The notes beneath the pieces are model-generated. The model saw only the letters and a list, made by a program, of their open reading frames with translations. It had not been told where the DNA came from and ran no database searches. From a virus (lineage: Duplodnaviria > Heunggongvirae > Uroviricota > Caudoviricetes): DNA of 29,429 nucleotides. The stretch is taken from the IMG/VR virus record IMGVR_UViG_2698536379_000013, one strand, 5' to 3'. Of the stretch, positions 1-24,961 are shown in pieces (the stretch's first letter is position 1; every line of letters starts with the position of its first letter). Both the position numbers and the translations under genes were made by a program.

Positions 1-1288
1 ATCTGTATTGCTGTGAGATATCACTGGTTGCCACACGCCACGCTGAATTACTGATATGTTCAAAATTTACAGACAAAACCTGCGGGGCAGGAATCGACGG
101 GTCTGACTGAACGGCATCAGACATAACACTGACTGAAACCATCGGCTGATTAGGGAATGGTATAGGGAAGTGTCCACTGATAAAGCGGGTCGTGTTTCCT
201 GAAAAAGTGCCAAACTGAACAATATATCCACCTGGTAGCCTGAACCATCCCGAACCAGAAGCGAATGCTCCCATATCCGGTATCTGATTATCTCCTGTGC
301 CCACATCCCTTTTCGCCGCTTCTCCCAAACCAAGGTATGCGAGAAGACCAGCGACATCCTTTCCACTCAAATTAGTCAGCGTATTGTCCAGCGGTTGTTT
401 ACCTGCCAGCGCATTAAGCATTGTCGTGGCAAAGTTCGGATCATTCCCCAACGCCGACGCCAGTTCGTTCAGTGTATCCAGTGCCGCAGGTGCAGAACCT
501 ACCATTGCTGCAATCGCCGATTTCACAAAAGCCGTGGTGGCAATCTGTGTATTGTTGACCGACTGTGCAGCAGTGGGGGCTGTTGGCGTTCCGGTGAGTG
601 CCGGACTCGACAACGGCGCTTTCAGTGCCAGCGCATTGTTAATGGTGGTACTGAAATTCGGATCATTGTTAATGGCTGCGGCTATTTCTTTCAGCGTGTC
701 CAGCGTGGCTGGCGCACCATTAATAAGAGCCGTCAGTGCCGCCTGAACAAACGCGGTGGTCGCAACCTGCGTGGTGTTATTCCCTGCCGCTGGAGTTGGC
801 GCTTTTGGTGTCCCGGTAAACGTCGGACTTTCTTTGGGTGCATACTGTGAATGCGGGTCCGGTGCGGCAAGATGTTTTGCCATCTGATCATCCACGTACA
901 CCTTCAGCTCCAGTACCTTGTCATCCACATACTTGCGGGTTGCCAGCACTACGGCAGGGTCGATTTTCAGGGTGATATTGTCCGTGCTGCTGGTAATCAG
1001 CACCATGCGCACGGTCTGGGTACGCCCGCTGCCTTCAGCCAGTTGCGGCTTATAGCTTTCCGGGCAGTTGCCCACGGCAATCAATGCCCCGGACTCATCA
1101 AACAGGCCCACTTCACGTATCCACCAACCGCCCTCGTTTTCAGGGATCACCTGTTCAGCAATAATCTGGCTGCTGTTCTGCGGGTCGATATAGAGCATAT
1201 TCAGCGCAGCCCGGCGTTTCTCATTTACCAATGCTGTCTGCTTGGCGTCCGGCGTTGGCAATGTTCCGCCGCCATCGCCCACCGCCAT
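1..1288 (-). CDS. Second tail-fibre ORF (H2), partial: region identical to H residues 32-352 followed by a different C-terminal domain; runs off the left edge
   Basis: Hand translation of the minus strand in the H frame of repeat copy 1: TAA at 1334-1336, ATG at 1288 (MAVGDGGG...), then open to position 1 with a novel C-terminus (...GTGDNQIPDMGAFASGSGWFRLPGGYIVQFG...). No recognisable SD before the ATG. Absent from the ORF track because no stop lies inside the window. Confidence 0.45.
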   Translation of the reverse strand, partial: MAVGDGGGTLPTPDAKQTALVNEKRRAALNMLYIDPQNSSQIIAEQVIPENEGGWWIREVGLFDESGALIAVGNCPESYKPQLAEGSGRTQTVRMVLITSSTDNITLKIDPAVVLATRKYVDDKVLELKVYVDDQMAKHLAAPDPHSQYAPKESPTFTGTPKAPTPAAGNNTTQVATTAFVQAALTALINGAPATLDTLKEIAAAINNDPNFSTTINNALALKAPLSSPALTGTPTAPTAAQSVNNTQIATTAFVKSAIAAMVGSAPAALDTLNELASALGNDPNFATTMLNALAGKQPLDNTLTNLSGKDVAGLLAYLGLGEAAKRDVGTGDNQIPDMGAFASGSGWFRLPGGYIVQFGTFSGNTTRFISGHFPIPFPNQPMVSVSVMSDAVQSDPSIPAPQVLSVNFEHISNSAWRVATSDISQQYR

Positions 1289-1334: not shown

Positions 1335-2766
1335 TATTAAGACCGGGTTCGTCCGTTTTAACTATTCCCCCGTCACCGTATGTAGCCAGTATTCCTGGGT
1401 TTACTCCTTCCCGTGCACTTCCTGCGGCGAGTCCGTCCCCTGTCCATAATTCCATATAGTGTGCATGGTCCAAAATTGTGTGTGGCTGCCAATTAAGCAA
1501 AGCGCGACCAGTATCAATCCCGCGACTGTCATCCCAGCCACGAATAAATTCACCGCGTAAATCAGGCAATTTATTGGTCGGGTAAGCCTTTGCCAGTTCC
1601 GGGTATTCTTCAGCAGAAAAAGCCGCACCGTTGCATTTCAGCCAGCCTGTTGGCGGAGTGGCGGAAGGCCACGGAACAGGCACACCAACGGGTAATGCCG
1701 AACCTTCTCCCAAACCAAGGTATGCGAGAAGACCAGCGACATCCTTTCCACTCAAATTAGTCAGCGTATTGTCCAGCGGTTGTTTACCTGCCAGCGCATT
1801 AAGCATTGTCGTGGCAAAGTTCGGATCATTCCCCAACGCCGACGCCAGTTCGTTCAGTGTATCCAGTGCCGCAGGTGCAGAACCTACCATTGCTGCAATC
1901 GCCGATTTCACAAAAGCCGTGGTGGCAATCTGTGTATTGTTGACCGACTGTGCAGCAGTGGGGGCTGTTGGCGTTCCGGTGAGTGCCGGACTCGACAACG
2001 GCGCTTTCAGTGCCAGCGCATTGTTAATGGTGGTACTGAAATTCGGATCATTGTTAATGGCTGCGGCTATTTCTTTCAGCGTGTCCAGCGTGGCTGGCGC
2101 ACCATTAATAAGAGCCGTCAGTGCCGCCTGAACAAACGCGGTGGTCGCAACCTGCGTGGTGTTATTCCCTGCCGCTGGAGTTGGCGCTTTTGGTGTCCCG
2201 GTAAACGTCGGACTTTCTTTGGGTGCATACTGTGAATGCGGGTCCGGTGCGGCAAGATGTTTTGCCATCTGATCATCCACGTACACCTTCAGCTCCAGTA
2301 CCTTGTCATCCACATACTTGCGGGTTGCCAGCACTACGGCAGGGTCGATTTTCAGGGTGATATTGTCCGTGCTGCTGGTAATCAGCACCATGCGCACGGT
2401 CTGGGTACGCCCGCTGCCTTCAGCCAGTTGCGGCTTATAGCTTTCCGGGCAGTTGCCCACGGCAATCAATGCCCCGGACTCATCAAACAGGCCCACTTCA
2501 CGTATCCACCAACCGCCCTCGTTTTCAGGGATCACCTGTTCAGCAATAATCTGGCTGCTGTTCTGCGGGTCGATATAGAGCATATTCAGCGCAGCCCGGC
2601 GTTTCTCATTTACCAATGCTGTCTGCTTGGCGTCCGGCGTTGGCAATGTTCCGCCGCCATCGCCCACCGCCATATGGGTAATTTTTAGCGGCACACCGAG
2701 CGCGGCGGCGCTGGCAAGTTTCGCCGCGCCAATATCCGTCAGCAGGGTATAAAATTTTGTGCTCAT
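1300..2766 (-). CDS. Tail fibre protein (P2 gpH-like) with tail-collar-type C-terminal domain
   Basis: 488 aa, ATG start. N-terminus (MSTKFYTLLTDIGAAKLA...MAVGDGGG...ESYKPQLAEGSGRTQTVRMV) matches recalled P2 H N-terminal region; Ala/Thr-rich repeats; C-terminal PWPSATPPTGWLKCNGAAFSAEEYPELAKAY...LPDLRGEFIRG is a tail-collar-like motif. Confidence 0.9.
   Translation of the reverse strand: MSTKFYTLLTDIGAAKLASAAALGVPLKITHMAVGDGGGTLPTPDAKQTALVNEKRRAALNMLYIDPQNSSQIIAEQVIPENEGGWWIREVGLFDESGALIAVGNCPESYKPQLAEGSGRTQTVRMVLITSSTDNITLKIDPAVVLATRKYVDDKVLELKVYVDDQMAKHLAAPDPHSQYAPKESPTFTGTPKAPTPAAGNNTTQVATTAFVQAALTALINGAPATLDTLKEIAAAINNDPNFSTTINNALALKAPLSSPALTGTPTAPTAAQSVNNTQIATTAFVKSAIAAMVGSAPAALDTLNELASALGNDPNFATTMLNALAGKQPLDNTLTNLSGKDVAGLLAYLGLGEGSALPVGVPVPWPSATPPTGWLKCNGAAFSAEEYPELAKAYPTNKLPDLRGEFIRGWDDSRGIDTGRALLNWQPHTILDHAHYMELWTGDGLAAGSAREGVNPGILATYGDGGIVKTDEPGLNNLPAPPRSVCR
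1704..2719. repeat. Direct repeat copy 2 (1016 bp, identical to 319-1334)
   Basis: Same as copy 1; period 1385 bp, unique spacer 1335-1703 (369 bp). Confidence 0.95.
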
Positions 2767-3368
2767 GGATTCACTCTCATTGTGTCAATAACATGGACCG
2801 CCCCGCCTTCATGCGCGGTGCCGCCGGAAATAATTGTTTCGTTGATATACGGATAGATCGTGATTTCTTCGCCAAGATAGCTGGCGGCCCCCACCCAATG
2901 CGGACCGCTGGTCTGCAGATTGATGGACATGCCGATCATGTGACGGCTACATGGTTTGGCATCGCTTATCAGCCGCTCAAGTTCCAGATAGGTATCTTCA
3001 GTGATGCCCTGGTCCTGCACGCCGATATCCAGGCGAAACGTGCCCGGTGTTTCTCCGGTCTGCCACCACTCAATAATGCGGATCAGGAATCCGAACGGTT
3101 CCACCACCCGCCGCACGGCACTGGTAGTTCCTTTATGCTGATGAATATAAAAAGCATCCTTCACTACCTGGCGTTTGACGCTTTCTGTCCAGCCCTCGTC
3201 CCAGCGATCCACAGAGAACGCCCAGGCGAGATAAGGCAGGAAGCTGACCGGACAGGTAGCCGGATTCCACAAGTCACGCAGCGGCACCTGCAGATCAGAA
3301 ATCCCGCTACAGGTTTGCGCCAGTCGGCGCTCCAGTGAAGTTGAACCCGGTGGCAGCAGACTATTCAT
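2763..3368 (-). CDS. Baseplate protein (P2 gpI-like)
   Basis: 201 aa, ATG start, overlaps H start by 4 nt; position between J and H; N-terminal LLPPGSTSLERRL resembles recalled P2 gpI. Confidence 0.8.
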   Translation of the reverse strand: MNSLLPPGSTSLERRLAQTCSGISDLQVPLRDLWNPATCPVSFLPYLAWAFSVDRWDEGWTESVKRQVVKDAFYIHQHKGTTSAVRRVVEPFGFLIRIIEWWQTGETPGTFRLDIGVQDQGITEDTYLELERLISDAKPCSRHMIGMSINLQTSGPHWVGAASYLGEEITIYPYINETIISGGTAHEGGAVHVIDTMRVNP

Positions 3369-6698: not shown

Positions 6699-6951
6699 TG
6701 TTTCGCTCCTGACACGCAATAATCATGTCCACTTTGTCTGCACAGACCGCCCAGGCGGCCTCCGTTTCATCCAGCAATGCGTTCAGATCACCGTTAGTGC
6801 GCGGCGCTGCCTGCTCCAGCCGACACGGCGTCACTCGCGGACAACCACTGACGGTAAGCTGCACCTCCGGTGAGTGCCGGACGTTCCCGCAGCCGGATAA
6901 TGTCAGCAGGCAAAGGAGTATCAGCCCAGCGGCGTAAATCCTCGTTCTCAC
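6661..6951 (-). CDS. Outer-membrane spanin lipoprotein (LysC/Rz1-like), overlapping lysB and R
   Basis: N-terminal signal peptide with lipobox LSGC; ORF embedded out of frame in lysB 3-prime end, typical Rz1 architecture. GTG start, so start is uncertain. Confidence 0.55.
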   Translation of the reverse strand: MRTRIYAAGLILLCLLTLSGCGNVRHSPEVQLTVSGCPRVTPCRLEQAAPRTNGDLNALLDETEAAWAVCADKVDMIIACQERNSEQTTIPAPRPQ

Positions 6952-7222
6952 GTTTCAGTTCCTCGATCCGGTGTTGTCGTTGTCTCAGCAGCGCGCTGGT
7001 CTGTTCTGCTTCGGCATAGAGCCGCGCCTGCTCCCGGTTATTGGTTTCAGCCAGAATGGACAGACTGATCAGCTGGCTATTTTTCTTCGTTAGTTCGTGC
7101 GCTTTACTTTTCAGCGCCGCGCGCTGCGTTTCGATGGTGTGGCTGGCGCTGTTAAGCCGCCACGACTGCCAGCCCAGCGCAACGAGTGCCAGCGCCGCCA
7201 CTACCGCCAGCGCACGCGTCAT
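6794..7222 (-). CDS. Inner-membrane spanin (LysB/Rz-like)
   Basis: 142 aa, N-terminal TM helix (ALAVVAALALVALGW) then charged coiled-coil-like region; ATG overlaps the endolysin stop (ATGA). Confidence 0.75.
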   Translation of the reverse strand: MTRALAVVAALALVALGWQSWRLNSASHTIETQRAALKSKAHELTKKNSQLISLSILAETNNREQARLYAEAEQTSALLRQRQHRIEELKRENEDLRRWADTPLPADIIRLRERPALTGGAAYRQWLSASDAVSAGAGSAAH

Positions 7223-7734
7223 AATCCAGCTCCTTTAAGGCACCAGGCCATCTCCCGCGCACGGCGGTTATCCAGCCCCTGATTAAACACACCTTTCACA
7301 TAAACCCAGCGCGGCAACTGTCGGCACGCTTCTGCCCAGCGCCGCTGATTGAGCAATTTCACCAGCGTAGAACTGCAGGCATTGCCCGTTCCCACGTTGA
7401 AGGCAAACGACACCGTAGCGTCATATACCTTCTGCGGCGGCTGTTGCTTCACACACCTTTCCAGCGCCCGCTCCACACGCAGCACGTTGGAAATAAGCCC
7501 TTCTGCTGCCTGTCGTTCCGTGATTGTTTTGCCGGGAATGACGCCCGACGTATTTCCAATGCCGTCGGTCCAGACACCCGCGCTGCACTGATACGGCTGC
7601 AGACGACAACCTTCGTAATCGGCAATCAGTTTCAGCCCCTCCACGGAGGTGTGAAGCTGCTGAAACCCCGGCAGCGTGGCAGCAATAGCCAGCACGGCCC
7701 CGACAAGGCAGCGTTTAACGATTGATGGATTCAT
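7219..7734 (-). CDS. Endolysin, lysozyme family, with SAR-like hydrophobic N-terminus
   Basis: 171 aa; GGGAGG SD; lysozyme-like motifs (EGLKLIADYEGCRL...DGIGNTSG); N-terminal Gly/Ala-rich hydrophobic segment LVGAVLAIAATLPG. Confidence 0.85.
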   Translation of the reverse strand: MNPSIVKRCLVGAVLAIAATLPGFQQLHTSVEGLKLIADYEGCRLQPYQCSAGVWTDGIGNTSGVIPGKTITERQAAEGLISNVLRVERALERCVKQQPPQKVYDATVSFAFNVGTGNACSSTLVKLLNQRRWAEACRQLPRWVYVKGVFNQGLDNRRAREMAWCLKGAGL

Positions 7735-7930
7735 AGTCCTCCCGCGAAATCTGCCCGTCGCGCAGAAGCTGGTAGGCTTTGTGTTTGTAGTACCAGTTGA
7801 TAGCCAGCATCAGCACACCAATCATCAGGCCGCCCAGCGTTGAGGCATCCTTGATGGACAAATCGCCCAGCCAGGCCAGCACGACGGCGATGCAATACGT
7901 GATAAAGGCGCTGATTCGCTCAAGCGTCAT
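7715..7930 (-). CDS. Holin (small, two predicted TM segments, pinholin-like)
   Basis: 71 aa, ATG start, two hydrophobic segments and a charged C-terminus, immediately upstream of the endolysin. Confidence 0.65.
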   Translation of the reverse strand: MTLERISAFITYCIAVVLAWLGDLSIKDASTLGGLMIGVLMLAINWYYKHKAYQLLRDGQISREDYESINR

Positions 7931-11401: not shown

Positions 11402-13168
11402 ATGAACACCACACTGACACCCGCAGATCTCGATCCCCGTCGGCAGGCCATGCTGCTGTACTTTCAGGGATACCGCGTAGCCCGCATTGCTGAAATGCTG
11501 GGCGAGAAAGTTGCAACCGTTCACAGCTGGAAAAAACGCGACAAGTGGGGTGACTATGGGCCGCTGGATCAGATGCAGCTCACCACCGCCGCCCGCTACT
11601 GCCAGCTCATTATGAAGGAGCACAAAGAAGGGAAAGATTTCAAAGAAATTGACCTGCTGGCGCGCCAGTCGGAGCGCCACGCGCGGATCGGCAAGTTTAA
11701 CAATGGCGGCAACGAAGCCGACTTAAACCCTAACGTCGCCAACCGCAACAAAGGGCCGCGCCGTCAGCCGGAAAAGAATGTTTTCACCGATGAACAGATT
11801 GAGAAGCTGGAAGAAATCTTCCATTCCTCCATGTTCAACTACCAGCGCCACTGGTGGGAAGCCGGAAAAACCAATCGCATCCGCAACCTGCTGAAGTCTC
11901 GCCAGATCGGCGCGACCTTTTACTTTGCCCGTGAAGCCCTGATTGACGCCCTGCTGACCGGACGTAACCAGATTTTCCTTTCCGCCAGTAAGGCACAGGC
12001 CCACGTCTTTAAGCAGTACATCATCGACTTCGCCAAAGAAGTCGAGGTGGAGCTGAAAGGCGATCCGATGGTGCTTCCTAACGGGGCCACGCTTTACTTC
12101 CTCGGCACCAATGCCCGCACGGCCCAGAGTTACCACGGCAACCTGTATCTGGATGAATATTTCTGGATACCGAAATTCCAGGAGCTGCGCAAAGTGGCTT
12201 CCGGTATGGCTATTCACAAAAAATGGCGACAAACCTATTTTTCCACGCCATCCAGCCTGACACACAGTGCTTATCCGTTCTGGTCCGGTGCGCTGTTCAA
12301 CCGAGGGCGCAACAAAGCCGATAAGGTGGACATCGACCTGTCCCACAGCAATCTGGCCCCCGGCCTGCTGTGCGCAGACGGGCAGTACCGCCAGATAGTC
12401 ACCGTGGAAGATGCGGTGCGCGGCGGCTGTAACCTGTTCGACCTTGACCAGTTGCGCATGGAGTACAGCCCGGACGAATACCAGAACCTGCTGATGTGCG
12501 AGTTCGTGGACGATCTCGCGTCCGTGTTCCCGCTCAGCGAGCTGCAGGCGTGCATGGTGGACAGTTGGGAAGTCTGGACCGACTTTCATGCACTGGCCCT
12601 GCGCCCGTTTGGCTGGCGCGAAGTGTGGATCGGATATGACCCGGCGAAAGGTACGCAGAACGGCGACAGCGCCGGATGCGTGGTGGTGGCGCCGCCAGCC
12701 GTGCCGGGCGGTAAGTTCCGCATTCTTGAGCGTCACCAGTGGCGCGGAATGGACTTCCGCGCCCAGGCTGACGCCATCAAAAAACTGACCGAACAGTACA
12801 ACGTGACCTATATCGGTATCGACTCAACCGGCGTTGGTCACGGGGTTTACGAGAACGTGAAAGCGTTTTTTCCTGCCGTCCGGGAGTTTGTCTACAACCC
12901 CAACGTTAAAAACGCCCTGGTACTCAAGGCCTACGACATTATCAGCCACCGCCGTCTGGAGTTTGACGCCGGACACACCGACATAGCGCAGTCCTTTATG
13001 GCAATCCGTCGCGCCACCACCGCCAGTGGCAACCGCCCGACCTATGAAGCCAGCCGCAGCGAAGAAGCCAGCCACGCCGATCTGGCCTGGGCAACGATGC
13101 ACGCACTGTTTAACGAACCGCTGCAGGGCGAATCCGCCAATACCAGCAATATTGTGGAGATTTTTTGA
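11402..13168 (+). CDS. Terminase ATPase (large) subunit (P2 gpP-like)
   Basis: 588 aa; extensive match to recalled P2 gpP (NRNKGPRRQP, IRNLLKSRQIGAT, GRNQIFLSASKAQAHVFKQYII, GTNARTAQSYHGNLY, KKWRQTYFSTPSS, GWREVW, HQWRGMDFRAQA, SRSEEASHAD). Confidence 0.95.
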   Translation: MNTTLTPADLDPRRQAMLLYFQGYRVARIAEMLGEKVATVHSWKKRDKWGDYGPLDQMQLTTAARYCQLIMKEHKEGKDFKEIDLLARQSERHARIGKFNNGGNEADLNPNVANRNKGPRRQPEKNVFTDEQIEKLEEIFHSSMFNYQRHWWEAGKTNRIRNLLKSRQIGATFYFAREALIDALLTGRNQIFLSASKAQAHVFKQYIIDFAKEVEVELKGDPMVLPNGATLYFLGTNARTAQSYHGNLYLDEYFWIPKFQELRKVASGMAIHKKWRQTYFSTPSSLTHSAYPFWSGALFNRGRNKADKVDIDLSHSNLAPGLLCADGQYRQIVTVEDAVRGGCNLFDLDQLRMEYSPDEYQNLLMCEFVDDLASVFPLSELQACMVDSWEVWTDFHALALRPFGWREVWIGYDPAKGTQNGDSAGCVVVAPPAVPGGKFRILERHQWRGMDFRAQADAIKKLTEQYNVTYIGIDSTGVGHGVYENVKAFFPAVREFVYNPNVKNALVLKAYDIISHRRLEFDAGHTDIAQSFMAIRRATTASGNRPTYEASRSEEASHADLAWATMHALFNEPLQGESANTSNIVEIF

Positions 13169-14202
13169 TGGGAAAGAGTAAGAAGAACCGCGCTGCGGCG
13201 ACGAAACAGATCCAGCTTAAAAGTCAAACTACAGCCGAAGCATTCAGCTTCGGCGATCCCGTTCCTGTTCTGGACCGCCGAGAACTGCTGGATTATGTGG
13301 AATGCGTACAGATGGACCGCTGGTATGAGCCGCCCGTCAGCTTTGACGGACTGGCGCGCACCTTCCGCGCTGCCGTGCATCATAGTTCCCCGATTGCAGT
13401 AAAGTGCAACATTCTGACCAGCACCTACATCCCTCACCCGCTGCTCAGCCAGCAGGCTTTTTCGCGTTTTGTGCAGGACTATCTGGTTTTTGGTAACGCC
13501 TACCTGGAGAAACGCACGAACCGCTTCGGTGAAGTTATCGCCCTTGAGCCTGCACTGGCAAAATACACCCGACGCGGGTTAGACCTGGATACCTACTGGT
13601 TTGTGCAATACGGTATGACAACCCAGCCGTATCAGTTCACGAAAGGCAGCATTTTTCATCTGATGGAACCGGATATTAATCAGGAGATCTACGGCCTGCC
13701 CGGTTATCTTTCTGCCATTCCGTCAGCCCTGCTCAACGAGTCCGCCACGCTGTTCCGTCGCAAGTATTACATTAACGGCAGTCATGCGGGCTTTATCATG
13801 TACATGACCGATGCCGCGCAAAACCAGGAGGATGTGAACAACCTCCGCAATGCGATGAAAAGCGCCAAAGGTCCAGGCAACTTCCGCAACCTGTTTATGT
13901 ACTCGCCTAACGGCAAAAAAGACGGGCTTCAGATCATCCCATTGTCAGAAGTCGCGGCGAAGGATGAGTTTTTGAATATCAAAAATGTCAGCCGCGACGA
14001 CATGATGGCTGCGCACCGCGTGCCGCCGCAAATGATGGGGATTATGCCTAATAATGTTGGAGGGTTTGGGGATGTGGAGAAGGCCAGTCGCGTATTTGTA
14101 CGTAATGAATTAACGCCCTTGCAAAAAAGGCTACAAGAGCTGAACGACTGGCTGGGCGAAGAAGTGATTAAATTTACGCCCTATATTCTTTCAGAAGAAT
14201 AA
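13168..14202 (+). CDS. Portal protein (P2 gpQ-like)
   Basis: ATG 13168 overlaps the P stop (TGATG) with GGAGA SD; 344 aa in the conserved P-Q arrangement. Confidence 0.9.
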   Translation: MGKSKKNRAAATKQIQLKSQTTAEAFSFGDPVPVLDRRELLDYVECVQMDRWYEPPVSFDGLARTFRAAVHHSSPIAVKCNILTSTYIPHPLLSQQAFSRFVQDYLVFGNAYLEKRTNRFGEVIALEPALAKYTRRGLDLDTYWFVQYGMTTQPYQFTKGSIFHLMEPDINQEIYGLPGYLSAIPSALLNESATLFRRKYYINGSHAGFIMYMTDAAQNQEDVNNLRNAMKSAKGPGNFRNLFMYSPNGKKDGLQIIPLSEVAAKDEFLNIKNVSRDDMMAAHRVPPQMMGIMPNNVGGFGDVEKASRVFVRNELTPLQKRLQELNDWLGEEVIKFTPYILSEE

Positions 14203-14210
14203 TTCCGAAC

Positions 14211-14909
14211 TTATTTGTTTCTTCTTTGTTCACGCCTTGTCTTGGCTTCGATAAGGCGTTGAGGTTCAGTGTAAAGCCGTTCTAAAAAAAGATAGGTAAA
14301 ATCTTCAAGATCCTCAGCAGCAGCTTTATCCAAAATACCTTCATGCGCTCCATCATTTCCGTCATCTTTAACGCATTCAGCTAGTTCCCTTAAAGCTTCA
14401 GGCAGTAGATGATTATCAAATAACCACTCCATTCTTAACCCTAGGCTTCTCCTTATTTTTTGCGCAGGCCCTTGCTCCCCATCAGGAAGAAGTCCTTTTG
14501 TGGCATAATCAAGGCAAAGCCTAAACATGGTTGCTGCTGCATTATAACAACCTATAGCCAAACATTTCGCCCCTTCCTCATATGCACTATTGATATGCTC
14601 AGGTAAGAACTCTGGTGGCTCCTCTACTGCTAAGTCTGCCGGTGATATAGGCCTAACAACCTCTGCAACTTCCTTTAAGCCGAATATTCCACTTTCCCAA
14701 TTATAGCCATCTAAAGTTTTATTTTTCGTTAAAGGTCTGCAAAGAAACATTGTCGTTTTATGACACTCTCGGCAAACACAATAGACCTCGTACTCGTATG
14801 TTTTACCCCCGCCCAATGCATTGTAAACCCTAGTGCAATTCAGCCCATTAACATCAAACGCTATTTTTTGTGATCCACATCGTGGACAGTCATCCACTAA
14901 CATAACCAT
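14211..14909 (-). CDS. Hypothetical zinc-ribbon protein (cargo gene between portal gene and cos)
   Basis: 232 aa, ATG with AGGGAGGAG SD. N-terminal Cys cluster CPRCG...CVCRECH; C-terminal alpha-type region with GNDGAH motif, loosely reminiscent of DUF4145-type domains (recall only). AT-richer than flanking genes. Confidence 0.65.
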   Translation of the reverse strand: MVMLVDDCPRCGSQKIAFDVNGLNCTRVYNALGGGKTYEYEVYCVCRECHKTTMFLCRPLTKNKTLDGYNWESGIFGLKEVAEVVRPISPADLAVEEPPEFLPEHINSAYEEGAKCLAIGCYNAAATMFRLCLDYATKGLLPDGEQGPAQKIRRSLGLRMEWLFDNHLLPEALRELAECVKDDGNDGAHEGILDKAAAEDLEDFTYLFLERLYTEPQRLIEAKTRREQRRNK

Positions 14910-15019
14910 GTCAATTACTCCTCCCTATGAAAAAAATGAGTTGAAAAATTGAATATTCACGACTTAAAAAGCTAGCCTATTTAACACCATAATTTCATTA
15001 ATTCAACCATGAGCGCGCG

Positions 15020-15038
15020 CTCGTATCCCCGCCACGCC
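15020..15038 (-). other. Putative cos (cohesive end) site, P2/186-like
   Basis: Minus-strand GGCGTGGCGGGGAtacgag; first 13 nt match the recalled 186 cos overhang GGCGTGGCGGGGAAAGCAT. Adjacent perfect palindrome GAGCGCGCGCTC at 15011-15022. Confidence 0.4.
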
Positions 15039-15082
15039 TGCCCGCTTTATGTAGTGGTTTTCATGCGCCTGCATGACATAAG

Positions 15083-15107
15083 CAAAAGCCCGCCATTCCT
15101 AGCGGGC
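15083..15107 (-). terminator. Rho-independent terminator-like hairpin ending the SOS operon
   Basis: Stem gcccgc/gcgggc (15088-15093 and 15102-15107), 8-nt loop, followed on the minus strand by a T-run (A-run 15084-15087 on plus). Confidence 0.5.
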
Positions 15108-15198
15108 CTCAGCTAAAACGATCCTCAAACGATCATGCGGATTCATGCGGCATAGACATGCACAATCGCCAAAGCGGGCATCGAGACTTTTTGGAAAA

Positions 15199-15810
15199 CT
15201 ACGTAACCACAGTTAATGTGTGCATCCTGTCTCGAATTGCATCACACGTCTCATCAAAAAGCTTGGTGATGGTTGTACGGTTCAACTCTGCCTCTTTCCA
15301 ATAATTTTGCCAGTCAAATTCTGGATCGCCATGCTGAAACGATATTGACTCTGAAAGGCATTCCTTCCGGAAACGGTCCAAGATTATATAAACCTCTGGT
15401 GAGATGAACGGTTTGTTAGACTCAACACTTGTAACAAAAGTATTAAATGCATCGAAAAAAACTTTCAACCTTCTAAATTTTCTCTCTTCAAATGGTTCGT
15501 TGGGGTCAAAATGATCCAGCGCAGGCCTCAGCTTAAGCACGCTTTCTCTGGTTTCAAACATCGAATTCCAAATGAGACTATATGCTGATAACTCCTTATC
15601 AAAATACGCTTTCGTTACATAAACAGAATTGTCTAACTTAGCCTTTATTCTTTCATTAGTTGCACTCAGTTGTGATTGAAATTCAGCAATATCTTTGTTT
15701 AGCCGCGACTTATATCTTTCTAAATAAACTTTCCCGATCCAAACAAATATGCCAGATGCAACAAAAGACACCCCACCCAACGAAGCCAGAATTTTAAAGA
15801 CTAAATCCAT
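15199..15810 (-). CDS. Hypothetical membrane-anchored protein (SOS-operon cargo)
   Basis: 203 aa, ATG with AGGTGGGGG SD; N-terminal TM helix (ILASLGGVSFVASGIFVWIG) then soluble domain; AT-rich; last gene before the terminator. Confidence 0.65.
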   Translation of the reverse strand: MDLVFKILASLGGVSFVASGIFVWIGKVYLERYKSRLNKDIAEFQSQLSATNERIKAKLDNSVYVTKAYFDKELSAYSLIWNSMFETRESVLKLRPALDHFDPNEPFEERKFRRLKVFFDAFNTFVTSVESNKPFISPEVYIILDRFRKECLSESISFQHGDPEFDWQNYWKEAELNRTTITKLFDETCDAIRDRMHTLTVVT

Positions 15811-16192: not shown

Positions 16193-16426
16193 TTAGTGCA
16201 GCCAGCTGTCGTCTTCCCAAACCTGCTGCATAATTTCCATCACCCGCTTTTTGTCTTCATCAAGCTTTAAGCCACTCAGCTCAACGCCGTTTGCCGACCC
16301 TTTACGGATGCGGATAGCTGTCTTGGGATAGATGGGTTGCAGGTTGCGGTAAAGCTCTGACTCCAGAGCGTCCAGGGTAGACTGGCTAATCTTCTGCTCT
16401 TTATCGATCATTATTTCAATGCGCAT
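16193..16426 (-). CDS. DinI-like domain protein (possibly the C-terminal part of a Tum-like antirepressor)
   Basis: From ATG 16426 (MRIEIMIDK...) with GAGGTGA SD 5 nt upstream; resembles the DinI family (MRIEV...LSxELxRR...VSVR...QRISEILQETWE) by recall. Confidence 0.65.
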   Translation of the reverse strand: MRIEIMIDKEQKISQSTLDALESELYRNLQPIYPKTAIRIRKGSANGVELSGLKLDEDKKRVMEIMQQVWEDDSWLH

Positions 16427-16436
16427 AAAAGTCACC

Positions 16437-16625
16437 TCAGCTGATGACATCCATTGAGCGGTTGTATTCGTGGGTTCTGATTTTTGCCATGAGTTCATCT
16501 GTCAGTTCAGAAACCCACTGCAGGGCCAGCCCCTTCTCTTCATCACTACACTCACTAGCCGCTACAAGCTTAAGAAAAAAATCAATGCGCTGGAGCTTCA
16601 AAGACTCCAAAAAATAGTCCTGCAT
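16437..16625 (-). CDS. Tum-like SOS-inducible antirepressor, N-terminal ORF (frame differs from the DinI-like ORF)
   Basis: ATG 16625 with perfect AGGAGG SD; LexA box 43 bp upstream; 62-aa ORF overlapping the DinI-like ORF by 62 nt in another frame. Confidence 0.5.
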   Translation of the reverse strand: MQDYFLESLKLQRIDFFLKLVAASECSDEEKGLALQWVSELTDELMAKIRTHEYNRSMDVIS

Positions 16626-22876: not shown

Positions 22877-23902
22877 ATGACGATCAGAAAACAGCCGAAC
22901 GGAAAGTGGTTGTGTGAATGCTACCCAAACGGGCGAGATGGCAAACGCGTACGTAAACAATTTGCGACAAAAGGCGAAGCCATTGCGTTTGAACGTTTCA
23001 CAATGGAAGAAGTGAACAAAAAACCGTGGCTGGGGGAAAAGGAAGATCGGCGACATTTGTCAGAAGTGATTGAACAATGGTACTCACTTTACGGGCAGAC
23101 GCTTGCTGACCCCAAACGCCTGATGGCGAAACTTAAAATTATCTGTAATGGTCTGGGCGATCCCATCGCTTCAGAACTGACCGCCGGTGATTTTACGAAA
23201 TACCGGGAAGCACGGCTAAAGGGTGAAGTGCGAAATGAAGATGGCGCGCTTATGTCGCCTGTTAAGCCCCGCACGGTAAATCTTGAACAACGCAACCTGT
23301 CATCGGTTTTTGGCACACTGAAAAAGCTGGGACACTGGTCAGCACCAAACCCACTGGCAGGACTTCCTACATTTAAAATTGCTGAAGGTGAGCTGGCCTT
23401 TCTTTCCATGGACGAAATCAAGCGCCTGTTGGATGCCTGCGCAGATTCTCAAAGCCCCAGCCTGCTGATGATTGCAAAAATATGCCTGGCCACCGGAGCA
23501 CGCTGGAGTGAAGCAGAAAATCTGCAGGGACACCAGTTGTCAAAATACCGCATCACATACACCAAGACGAAGGGCAAGAAAAACCGTACCGTGCCAATAT
23601 CTCAGGATCTGTATGACGAACTTCCCAAAAATAGAGGGAAATTATTCACACCATGCAGAAAAGCCTTTGAGCGGGCAGTAAAGCGGGCCGGTATCGAACT
23701 GCCAGAAGGACAATGCACCCACGTGCTACGCCATACATTCGCCAGCCACTTTATGATGAATGGCGGTAATATACTTGTGCTTAAAGAAATTTTAGGCCAT
23801 ACCGATATAAAAATGACCATGATTTATGCTCATTTCGCACCAGAGCATCTTGAAGATGCGGTGACAAAAAATCCTTTAGCCACTCTTTTTTCTACTAATT
23901 AA
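22877..23902 (+). CDS. int: Tyrosine integrase (P2/186-type)
   Basis: 341 aa with C-terminal catalytic region HVLRHTFASHF...LGHTDIKMTMIYAHF; adjacent to the repressor gene and upstream of the att core. Confidence 0.95.
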   Translation: MTIRKQPNGKWLCECYPNGRDGKRVRKQFATKGEAIAFERFTMEEVNKKPWLGEKEDRRHLSEVIEQWYSLYGQTLADPKRLMAKLKIICNGLGDPIASELTAGDFTKYREARLKGEVRNEDGALMSPVKPRTVNLEQRNLSSVFGTLKKLGHWSAPNPLAGLPTFKIAEGELAFLSMDEIKRLLDACADSQSPSLLMIAKICLATGARWSEAENLQGHQLSKYRITYTKTKGKKNRTVPISQDLYDELPKNRGKLFTPCRKAFERAVKRAGIELPEGQCTHVLRHTFASHFMMNGGNILVLKEILGHTDIKMTMIYAHFAPEHLEDAVTKNPLATLFSTN

Positions 23903-23914
23903 AAGGTAATTATT

Positions 23915-24811
23915 ATGACAGAGCTCTACCTTTTAGATCGAAACATAATTGATCTAATGAATAAGCACAACAATTCTTCTAATATCCCAGAACCTAATAG
24001 AATTGATATGCTTAATAAATTAAAAGCATTAGATATCAAAGGAAATACTTTCTCACCTTTACTATCAATAATAGAAGGAAAAACCCATAAAAAACTTGAC
24101 AGTAACGGCAAATTAGAAATCATAAAAACACCTAATAAAAAAATAAGAAAATTAATTATAGAGGATAGTGAAATTGTAAAATCATTTATTAAAGAAGCTA
24201 ACACTGATTATGATTTCCTAACATCCAATGTAAATAAACTATCAAAAATAATATATGAAAAAGAAACTGACAGATTAATAGATAAAAAAACAAAATTCCT
24301 TGATAAGCTACAAGAAAAAATAGGGGAAACAAAGAAAGTAGAACAACGAGAGAATACATATTATGAGTTTAAAGAGATAGTAAACGAGTTTAATGAATTT
24401 AAAAACCAACCGTTTACAATTGTAGCTCTGATGTATATCTTTGGAAGCCAACGAGCTGAGAAGATATTAAAATTTAAAAGTAAAAATTTTTCATCTTATA
24501 ACCCAATTGCTGATTTTAATCATTACAAAACCACTATCCAACTTAGATTTGATGATAGATTAAAAGATAATGCAAACATACATTTTATTTCACTTGATTC
24601 AGATATTGAATTTATACAGCAACTTTTTCATCCTAATAATGCTAAAATTAGTAGTTCAACAAACTACACTAATACTTTAGCTATTGAGTGGACAATTAAT
24701 AAAAATTTTCTACAGAGTGAAATACCGGAAACAAAGGGCGAACTCAACAATCAAGAATTGTTTTACTCATGCTTTCAAGACTTGTATGGGTACGATGCCC
24801 GCGTGTCTTAA
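23915..24811 (+). CDS. Hypothetical protein (AT-rich cargo between int and att); N-terminus resembles a PIN-domain first strand
   Basis: 298 aa, ATG 12 nt after the int stop with AAGG SD. N-terminal MTELYLLDRNIIDLM resembles the h-h-D-T-N-h-h motif that opens PIN nucleases (inference from a single motif). Very AT-rich, Lys/Asn-rich. Confidence 0.6.
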   Translation: MTELYLLDRNIIDLMNKHNNSSNIPEPNRIDMLNKLKALDIKGNTFSPLLSIIEGKTHKKLDSNGKLEIIKTPNKKIRKLIIEDSEIVKSFIKEANTDYDFLTSNVNKLSKIIYEKETDRLIDKKTKFLDKLQEKIGETKKVEQRENTYYEFKEIVNEFNEFKNQPFTIVALMYIFGSQRAEKILKFKSKNFSSYNPIADFNHYKTTIQLRFDDRLKDNANIHFISLDSDIEFIQQLFHPNNAKISSSTNYTNTLAIEWTINKNFLQSEIPETKGELNNQELFYSCFQDLYGYDARVS

Positions 24812-24961
24812 CAACAGGTGATAAATAGCAGACTTAATACCTACAATGTGGCGGCATTTTGGCGGCAGAACATTAAAAAAGCGTAAAACGGACAAACACA
24901 AAATAACAATAACAGACTGATTTTAAACGAAACTTAATGTTTTTGTTATGGTAAAAATGGT

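Follow-up and report, generated by a model that had tools for sequence, protein, structure and literature searches.

A gene lying between the portal gene and the putative cohesive-end (cos) site of a P2-like prophage encodes a 232-aa zinc-ribbon–HEPN protein, which we read as a single-protein abortive-infection RNase, expressed in the lysogen, with a zinc ribbon that would sense a phage product. We give this reading a probability of roughly two in three. The window (here, the whole stretch of 29,429 nt that was analysed, IMG/VR record IMGVR_UViG_2698536379_000013) is 99.9% identical to Escherichia phage Cartapus (OV696611.1, Peduoviridae), a P2-like prophage, and the stretch that carries the gene is 100% identical to E. 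coli LF82. The window also runs on for ~4.4 kb outside the prophage as published, reaching glaH and lhgO.

The gene and its slot beside cos

The ORF (14211–14909, minus strand) is complete, begins with ATG and encodes a protein of 26.3 kDa with a pI of 5.1, identical to WP_000245245.1 (LF82_RS13705, LF82_788, CARTA_1) and annotated as a 'DUF4145 domain-containing protein'. It is preceded by the Shine–Dalgarno sequence AGGGAGGAG (14918–14926, minus strand), read from the sequence, the last GGAG of which lies 8 nt before the ATG; the GGAGGAG of this element is kept at the homologous locus in Raoultella. This is a real gene rather than a chance ORF, with hundreds of homologues, most of them full length: a word-indexed search returned 603 at E ≤ 1e-3, and in a 50%-identity library it matched 927 clusters, of which 137 reached E ≤ 1e-30. 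On its other side lies the portal gene (13165–14202, plus strand), a homologue of P2 gpQ (Pfam Phage_portal, E = 3.6e-18) and the conserved anchor of the slot; the two ORFs are convergent, with stop codons only 8 nt apart. The sequence-only reading of this DNA had described a 232-aa ORF with an N-terminal Cys cluster and a strong Shine–Dalgarno sequence filling the interval 14203–15041, and had it reading inward from the genome end. That interval is the entire gap from Q to cos, and the ORF inside it, with its two CxxC pairs, runs on the minus strand from cos towards Q as described.

The cos-like site is a 19-nt homologue of the P2 cohesive-end sequence, within a conserved flank. When circularised, the P2 cos junction aligns gap-free to window positions 15006–15070, which puts its 19-nt cos at precisely 15020–15038 (14 of 19 bases identical), the very coordinates proposed by the sequence-only reading. 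The public Cartapus record labels 15012–15070 a 'putative cos site', and prophages of Raoultella, Leclercia, Tatumella and Enterobacter keep the cos core ahead of their homologue of the gene. We regard 15020–15038 as a P2-type cos by homology, putative in terms of the virion ends.

The gap between cos and Q holds no gene in P2 (cos 1–19, terminator tQ 160–181, Q stop 187) or in phage 186 (cos 1–19, tW 164–187, W stop 196); as the sequence-only reading had stated, Q of P2 sits almost at the cohesive end, with only tQ intervening. In Salmonella phage SEN8 the same slot is filled otherwise, by two unrelated genes that encode a 332-aa hypothetical protein and an HNH endonuclease. A prophage of Enterobacter wuhouensis carries there (locus coordinates 6768–7772, minus strand) a 59%-identical homologue together with an extra 334-aa ORF between the homologue and the portal gene. 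Thus the 'inserted cargo slot' suggested earlier held up on comparison of this junction across P2-like phages: it lies between the conserved gpA and gpQ, adjoins cos, and varies in content among relatives. The GC content is 37–46% over the ORF and its neighbour across cos (a drop to ~40%), as against 51–63% in the P and Q genes. As part of the explanation that we favour, the gene was gained by horizontal transfer and is cargo (a 'moron') of a cos-proximal hotspot in the prophage. A structural or morphogenetic role was rejected, the gene being absent from P2, 186 and most relatives.

The neighbour across cos (15199–15810, minus strand) encodes a 203-aa protein with one predicted N-terminal transmembrane helix, no Pfam domain and a match to PHROG 26391; it has been listed as hotspot system 39, with 103 occurrences (Rousset et al., 2022). 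A gene for a further hypothetical protein of 401 aa (LF82_RS26220, ~23651–24856, plus strand) separates the integrase from the end of the prophage and may likewise be cargo.

Domain architecture and conservation

The protein divides into two parts. Residues 1–97 (14619–14909, minus strand) form a beta-rich zinc-ribbon domain, the most variable part of the protein, with CxxC knuckles at C8/C11 (14877–14888, minus strand) and C46/C49 (14763–14774, minus strand) and further cysteines at C25, C44 and C57. Residues 98–232 (14214–14618, minus strand) form an all-helical DUF4145/HEPN domain with a basic tail. Pfam DUF4145 (PF13643) matches residues 114–203 (E = 4.5e-7; 30.3 bits, above the gathering score of 23.1), so that the loose likeness to DUF4145/HEPN proposed in the sequence-only reading now has a profile match above threshold behind it. 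DUF4145 is a HEPN family, in which fusions to zinc ribbons had already been noted (Anantharaman et al., 2013, PMC3710099).

An AlphaFold2 (AF2) model built on a 91-sequence alignment (pLDDT 95.5, pTM 0.82) predicts strands at residues 3–6, 16–30, 36–46, 52–59 and 82–87 of the N-terminal domain, followed by the all-helical C-terminal domain, and places each CxxC at the knuckle of a beta-hairpin; together with the conservation of the four cysteines, this predicted geometry agrees with the zinc ribbon claimed at the outset. From the single sequence the model reached a pLDDT of only 39 and was uninformative. Foldseek searches of the model against the PDB gave no significant match, only low-ranking HEPN matches with 9Y9C outside the top 50, and against BFVD gave two significant viral matches, both without a name. 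There was no NCBIfam model that matched the protein and no Rfam match in the window. PHROG 1305 matches strongly (E = 9.5e-53) and is labelled 'DNA binding protein', a label for which we found no experimental basis.

In an alignment of close relatives (A1), C8, C11, C46, C49, R130, K181 and the run G184-N-D-G-A-H189 are invariant; in the wider family (A4), C46 and C49 remain invariant, and conservation is 90% or more at each of C8, C11, G184, N185, D186 and H189. Mean identity to the query is 0.25–0.39 in the N-terminal domain versus 0.50–0.75 in the HEPN part. The R...H motif of DUF4145 has been described as 'mostly conserved (80%)' (Anantharaman et al., 2013, PMC3710099); here the H and N are present and the R is conservatively replaced by K. 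Among 266 family sequences, position 181 is K in 165 and R in 67 (K or R in 232 of the 266), with K throughout the close clade and R dominating in distant members.

Homology to the ring-activated RNase RAZR

The sole characterised relative of the protein is PD-T7-4, since renamed RAZR (ring-activated zinc-finger RNase; E. coli UMB1727, RRL46918.1; Vassallo et al., 2022, PMC9519451; Zhang et al., Nature 2026, PMC13017515), structures of which are available (PDB 9Y9C and 9Y6U; PMC13017515). RAZR combines a Cys4 zinc ribbon with a DUF4145/HEPN RNase domain that has catalytic R146 and H154. It is inactive as linear oligomers and forms a 24-mer around phage portal or Erf-like rings (~170 Å); thus assembled it cleaves ssRNA, and infection aborts. 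Alanine at the catalytic arginine abolishes defence, and overproduction of RAZR alone is not toxic (all PMC13017515).

The PD-T7-4 model (PDLC04109) was the only PADLOC match to our protein (E = 1.2e-6, 26 bits; residues 36–200 against profile positions 39–165 of 211), a significant but weak one to a model without a curated cut-off. It also matched 10 of the 13 other family members and phage homologues tried, and because the scores reach only 13–30 bits, none of these homologues is an orthologue of RAZR. Among sequence searches of the PDB, phmmer with the protein alone returned nothing relevant and the close-relative profile (A1) nothing even at E ≤ 10; the broad family profile (A4) matched the RAZR chain of 9Y9C (E = 1.2e-4). 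The pairwise comparison used RAZR residues 15–54 and 77–191, as printed in the profile alignment. Over residues 77–191, hhalign gave a probability of 94.6% (E = 7e-8, 20% identity, 109 columns) and aligned H189 with the catalytic H154 and K181 with R146, which delimits a predicted active-site motif, K181-D-D-G-N-D-G-A-H189 (14343–14369, minus strand). Over residues 15–54, where C16, C19, C49 and C52 stand against C8, C11, C46 and C49, the family profile matched only weakly, at 3.5 bits, and it also aligned weakly to the zinc ribbons of L33 and RPA12.

Several features beyond the alignment are shared. Both are single proteins of ~220–230 aa in which an N-terminal Cys4 zinc ribbon precedes a C-terminal DUF4145/HEPN domain; both have His at the catalytic position and a basic residue 8 residues upstream; and in both the N-terminal domain is variable and the HEPN domain conserved (for RAZR, PMC13017515). 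Both also have a conserved charged helix ending in T-x-P (here E210-R211-x-x-T214-E215-P216; in RAZR D179-D180-x-x-T183-R184-P185). In RAZR this helix makes the dimer–dimer contacts through D179, D180 and R184 (PMC13017515), and the segment E210–P216 may by analogy form a similar interface. Against these likenesses stand an identity of only ~20% in the HEPN domain and a zinc-ribbon likeness that is barely detectable; the replacement of catalytic R146 by K181, such that the arginine itself is lacking; ~25 extra residues (an additional strand and a hairpin) between the second CxxC and the HEPN domain; and a different niche, the P2 cos–Q slot, whereas PD-T7-4 'often overlaps an integrase gene'. 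We conclude that RAZR and the cargo protein share one architecture and most probably represent sister families rather than being orthologues.

The lysine at position 181 opens an alternative, since the arginine it replaces is essential in RAZR: the change from R to K may end RNA cleavage, leaving a catalytically altered HEPN protein that acts as a nucleic-acid-binding or regulatory zinc-ribbon protein, with a role at cos or in packaging conceivable. The PHROG label and the position next to cos would suit such a protein. However, G184-N185-D186-G187-A188-H189 does not vary among close relatives, and this near-invariance, combined with a basic residue at position 181 across most of the family, fits an active site under selection. 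Nor can the gene be a packaging component, as P2, 186 and most relatives lack it and share the same cos core. We consider loss of catalysis unlikely, and expect the protein to act as an RNase despite the lysine.

Family breadth and genomic context

Related loci, 80 of which were compared, span Proteobacteria, Nitrospirota, Omnitrophota, Planctomycetota, Verrucomicrobiota, Acidobacteriota and other phyla. The P2-type genes searched for, and the Q junction, occur at only five of them, and other phage context was not evident. The immediate neighbours are almost all different (137 of 153 without a relative among the rest), and among the 141 neighbours scanned with Pfam any given family occurs in two at most. 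There is no conserved partner across the 80 loci, and the gene is therefore a single-gene module. Defence-island context was not obvious in the neighbourhoods outside Enterobacteriaceae, which counts against a defence function.

The lack of a partner bears on a second alternative, that the protein is a HEPN toxin of an addiction module, stabilising the prophage or arresting growth under stress as HEPN–MNT toxin–antitoxin pairs do and sensing no incoming phage. An antitoxin would be expected as a conserved neighbour, but the neighbours are mostly singletons and no MNT or nucleotidyltransferase family recurs; in the window the gene is flanked by the portal gene and cos. The protein moreover has a variable, sensor-like domain of its own, and RAZR, as noted above, is harmless when overproduced by itself. 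An addiction role thus appears distinctly improbable to us.

Full-length homologues at 25–32% identity are also found in further temperate phages, namely Stx phages, Burkholderia phages and the Gordonia phage Meyran. In the Stx phages the homologue adjoins a Ren-like exclusion gene and a RelE/ParE module. In Burkholderia phage phiBt-TXDOH (OK095358.1) a full-length homologue with the motif RLDGNDALH, i.e. with R at the variable position, lies unannotated at 2237–3136 (plus strand), where the record has ORFs on the opposite strand. In Meyran the homologue is gene 1 (94–783, plus strand; 27% identity, with a weak PD-T7-4 match), located at the extreme left end of the genome and adjoining the small terminase gene – a second instance, in an unrelated phage, of this type of protein beside a cohesive end.

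A catalogued defence hotspot

The gpA–cos–gpQ region is a published defence hotspot of P2 phages (Rousset et al., 2022), and the existence, position and domain content of the gene are already known and not new. Table S5B of that study lists P2-hotspot system 29 as 'zinc_ribbon_13/DUF4145', with 125 occurrences and the description 'Putative nuclease' (Rousset et al., 2022); its protein sequence is identical to the product of 14211–14909. Their Table S5A has the arrangement of the window (hypothetical, DinI, hypothetical, hypothetical, DUF4145), the last protein being WP_000245245. In the tables of cloned systems this sequence does not appear, so that it was catalogued in that work with no assay there. 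We found no published experiment on WP_000245245.1, which again counts against the defence reading. The 'Putative HEPN' protein of the same study (pFR103), assayed there with no phenotype, was set aside as a different protein. Of 5426 complete E. coli genomes, 43 carry the cargo gene.

Expression in the lysogen

Transcription of the gene could be followed in the per-gene RNA-seq data for LF82 (Misson et al., 2023, Table S1). In overnight LB cultures, CARTA_1 reached 25.6 normalised counts, with a prophage median of 6.9 and 33 for the CI repressor; the value is just under the cut-off of 34.4 (5x) used by Misson and colleagues to call morons, a point against the defence reading. Its log2 fpkm rose from ~4.7 in LB to 7.0–7.6 in DMEM and 9.2–9.6 in macrophages, while the portal, large terminase, gpA and Dam genes stayed at about 2.3–3.2 in every condition. 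The gene is therefore transcribed while the prophage is repressed and does not depend on the lytic programme, a pattern that fits a lysogenic-conversion or defence gene and speaks against an anti-defence gene of early lytic growth. LF82 is associated with Crohn's disease, and so strong a rise in macrophages may matter for phage therapy against the strain or for its fitness.

Two other loci of the prophage are expressed as well. The gene for the 203-aa protein across cos exceeds CARTA_1 (45.8 counts, 7x background, and called a moron), with a log2 fpkm of up to 10.5 in macrophages. At 16193–16625 (minus strand), a DinI-family gene and a small upstream ORF (62 aa, PHROG 698) are low in LB and DMEM and rise ~30- to 100-fold in macrophages, with the adjacent gpA silent, which suggests that a promoter downstream of gpA responds to SOS or stress.

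These data weigh on the third alternative, that of an early-expressed anti-defence or host-takeover factor, placed at the genome end for early expression, that would neutralise host immunity or degrade host RNA for Cartapus. The sequence-only reading had left the choice between such a factor and a defence gene of the lysogen. In favour of the former, the gene reads inward from the very tip of the linear genome, and its distant homologue is gene 1 beside cos and terS in Meyran; we found no further support. Yet it is transcribed in the stable lysogen with gpA, Dam, portal and terminase at background, its homologues occur mostly outside evident phage contexts, its one characterised relative is a host-protective abortive-infection RNase, and the slot is a documented defence hotspot. 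We judge the anti-defence arm of that choice very unlikely; lysogen transcription, homology to RAZR and the hotspot all speak for the lysogen-defence arm.

A candidate weak sigma-70 promoter for the gene, picked by eye and of low confidence, lies at 14978–15006 (minus strand), with TTGAAT at 15006–15001, a 17-nt spacer and TGtTAAATA (–10 hexamer 14983–14978). The TTGAAT/TTGAAA block is kept in four gene-carrying prophages. A strict promoter scan found none on the minus strand upstream of the ORF, another point that counts against the defence reading. Between the 203-aa gene and cos (15080–15108, minus strand), a hairpin GCCCGC–8 nt–GCGGGC followed by TTTTGCTT looks like an intrinsic terminator and is kept in Raoultella and Leclercia prophages; a consensus terminator scan did not report it. 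Should this hairpin terminate transcription, the zinc-ribbon–HEPN gene would need its own promoter in the 110 bp past cos.

On the opposite strand we saw no terminator after the portal gene (14203–14210) or anywhere before cos, unlike the tQ and tW of P2 and 186; the first plus-strand terminator-like hairpin with a T-run is at 15042–15057, just past cos. With no terminator, and with the stop codons so close, late P–Q transcripts may run antisense across the whole cargo gene.

Proposed mode of action

Under the reading that we favour, the prophage would make the zinc-ribbon–HEPN protein in the lysogen, where, by analogy with RAZR, it would rest as an inactive oligomer. A superinfecting phage would then produce a particular protein that is bound by the variable Cys4 zinc-ribbon domain, the presumed sensor, and binding would bring the HEPN domains, the effector, into an active arrangement that cuts ssRNA. 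Translation would halt and the infection abort, thereby protecting the lysogen population and the resident prophage. Anti-phage activity of this kind is what we consider probable from homology, location and expression together. As for the trigger, a ring-shaped phage protein such as the portal is one possibility; a ring-protein trigger like that of RAZR is plausible, although we rate it as less likely than not.

A ring-sensing RNase encoded beside the phage's own portal gene would have to distinguish the portal or recombinase rings of other phages from the dodecameric portal of its own, or be switched off in lytic growth. One speculative solution is that the lysine-variant clade is such an RNase, carried back to back with the phage's own portal gene and silenced by late antisense P–Q transcription when its own portal rings appear. 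We give this idea little credence at present; if true, antisense silencing would amount to a built-in self-tolerance in a prophage that carries a sensor for a conserved structure of phages.

Comparison with known systems

A defence phenotype for the family would already be demonstrated if it includes DS-38, a validated E. coli defence system from DefensePredictor that combines HEPN with a zinc finger distinct from that of PD-T7-4 (bioRxiv 10.1101/2025.01.08.631726). Compared by description alone, DS-38 fits our protein, although it may belong to a different family. The strains of that screen were mainly ECOR (bioRxiv 10.1101/2025.01.08.631726), and WP_000245245 occurs in contig NZ_QOYR01000032, the accession prefix of which is apparently that of the ECOR series.

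The old and tin genes of P2, and other gpA–cos–gpQ cargo (Odegrip et al., 2006; Rousset et al., 2022), share with the cargo gene the same hotspot, its low-GC variable content and the logic of lysogenic-conversion genes that exclude other phages. Position sets them apart: the cargo gene is on the gpQ side of cos, where P2 and 186 have no gene, and old and tin are on the gpA side. There is also no relationship between the proteins. With other DUF4145 HEPN defence proteins (PMC3710099), among them BxaP, a DUF4145 protein with a defence phenotype (PMC10799925), the cargo protein has the DUF4145 HEPN module in common, whereas their partner domains are REase, helicase or, in BxaP, HEAT-like. The case shows that a cargo gene of a defence hotspot can be picked out correctly from the raw sequence alone.

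Beside RAZR, the family described here adds a second large and widespread group of zinc-ribbon–HEPN proteins, found in many phyla and several temperate phages, in which the sensor domain differs and lysine takes the place of the catalytic arginine. It bears on the generality of the RAZR mechanism, the assembly of an RNase into its active form by a phage protein, on which phage structures such sensors read, and on how a prophage tolerates a sensor for phage proteins that it may itself make.
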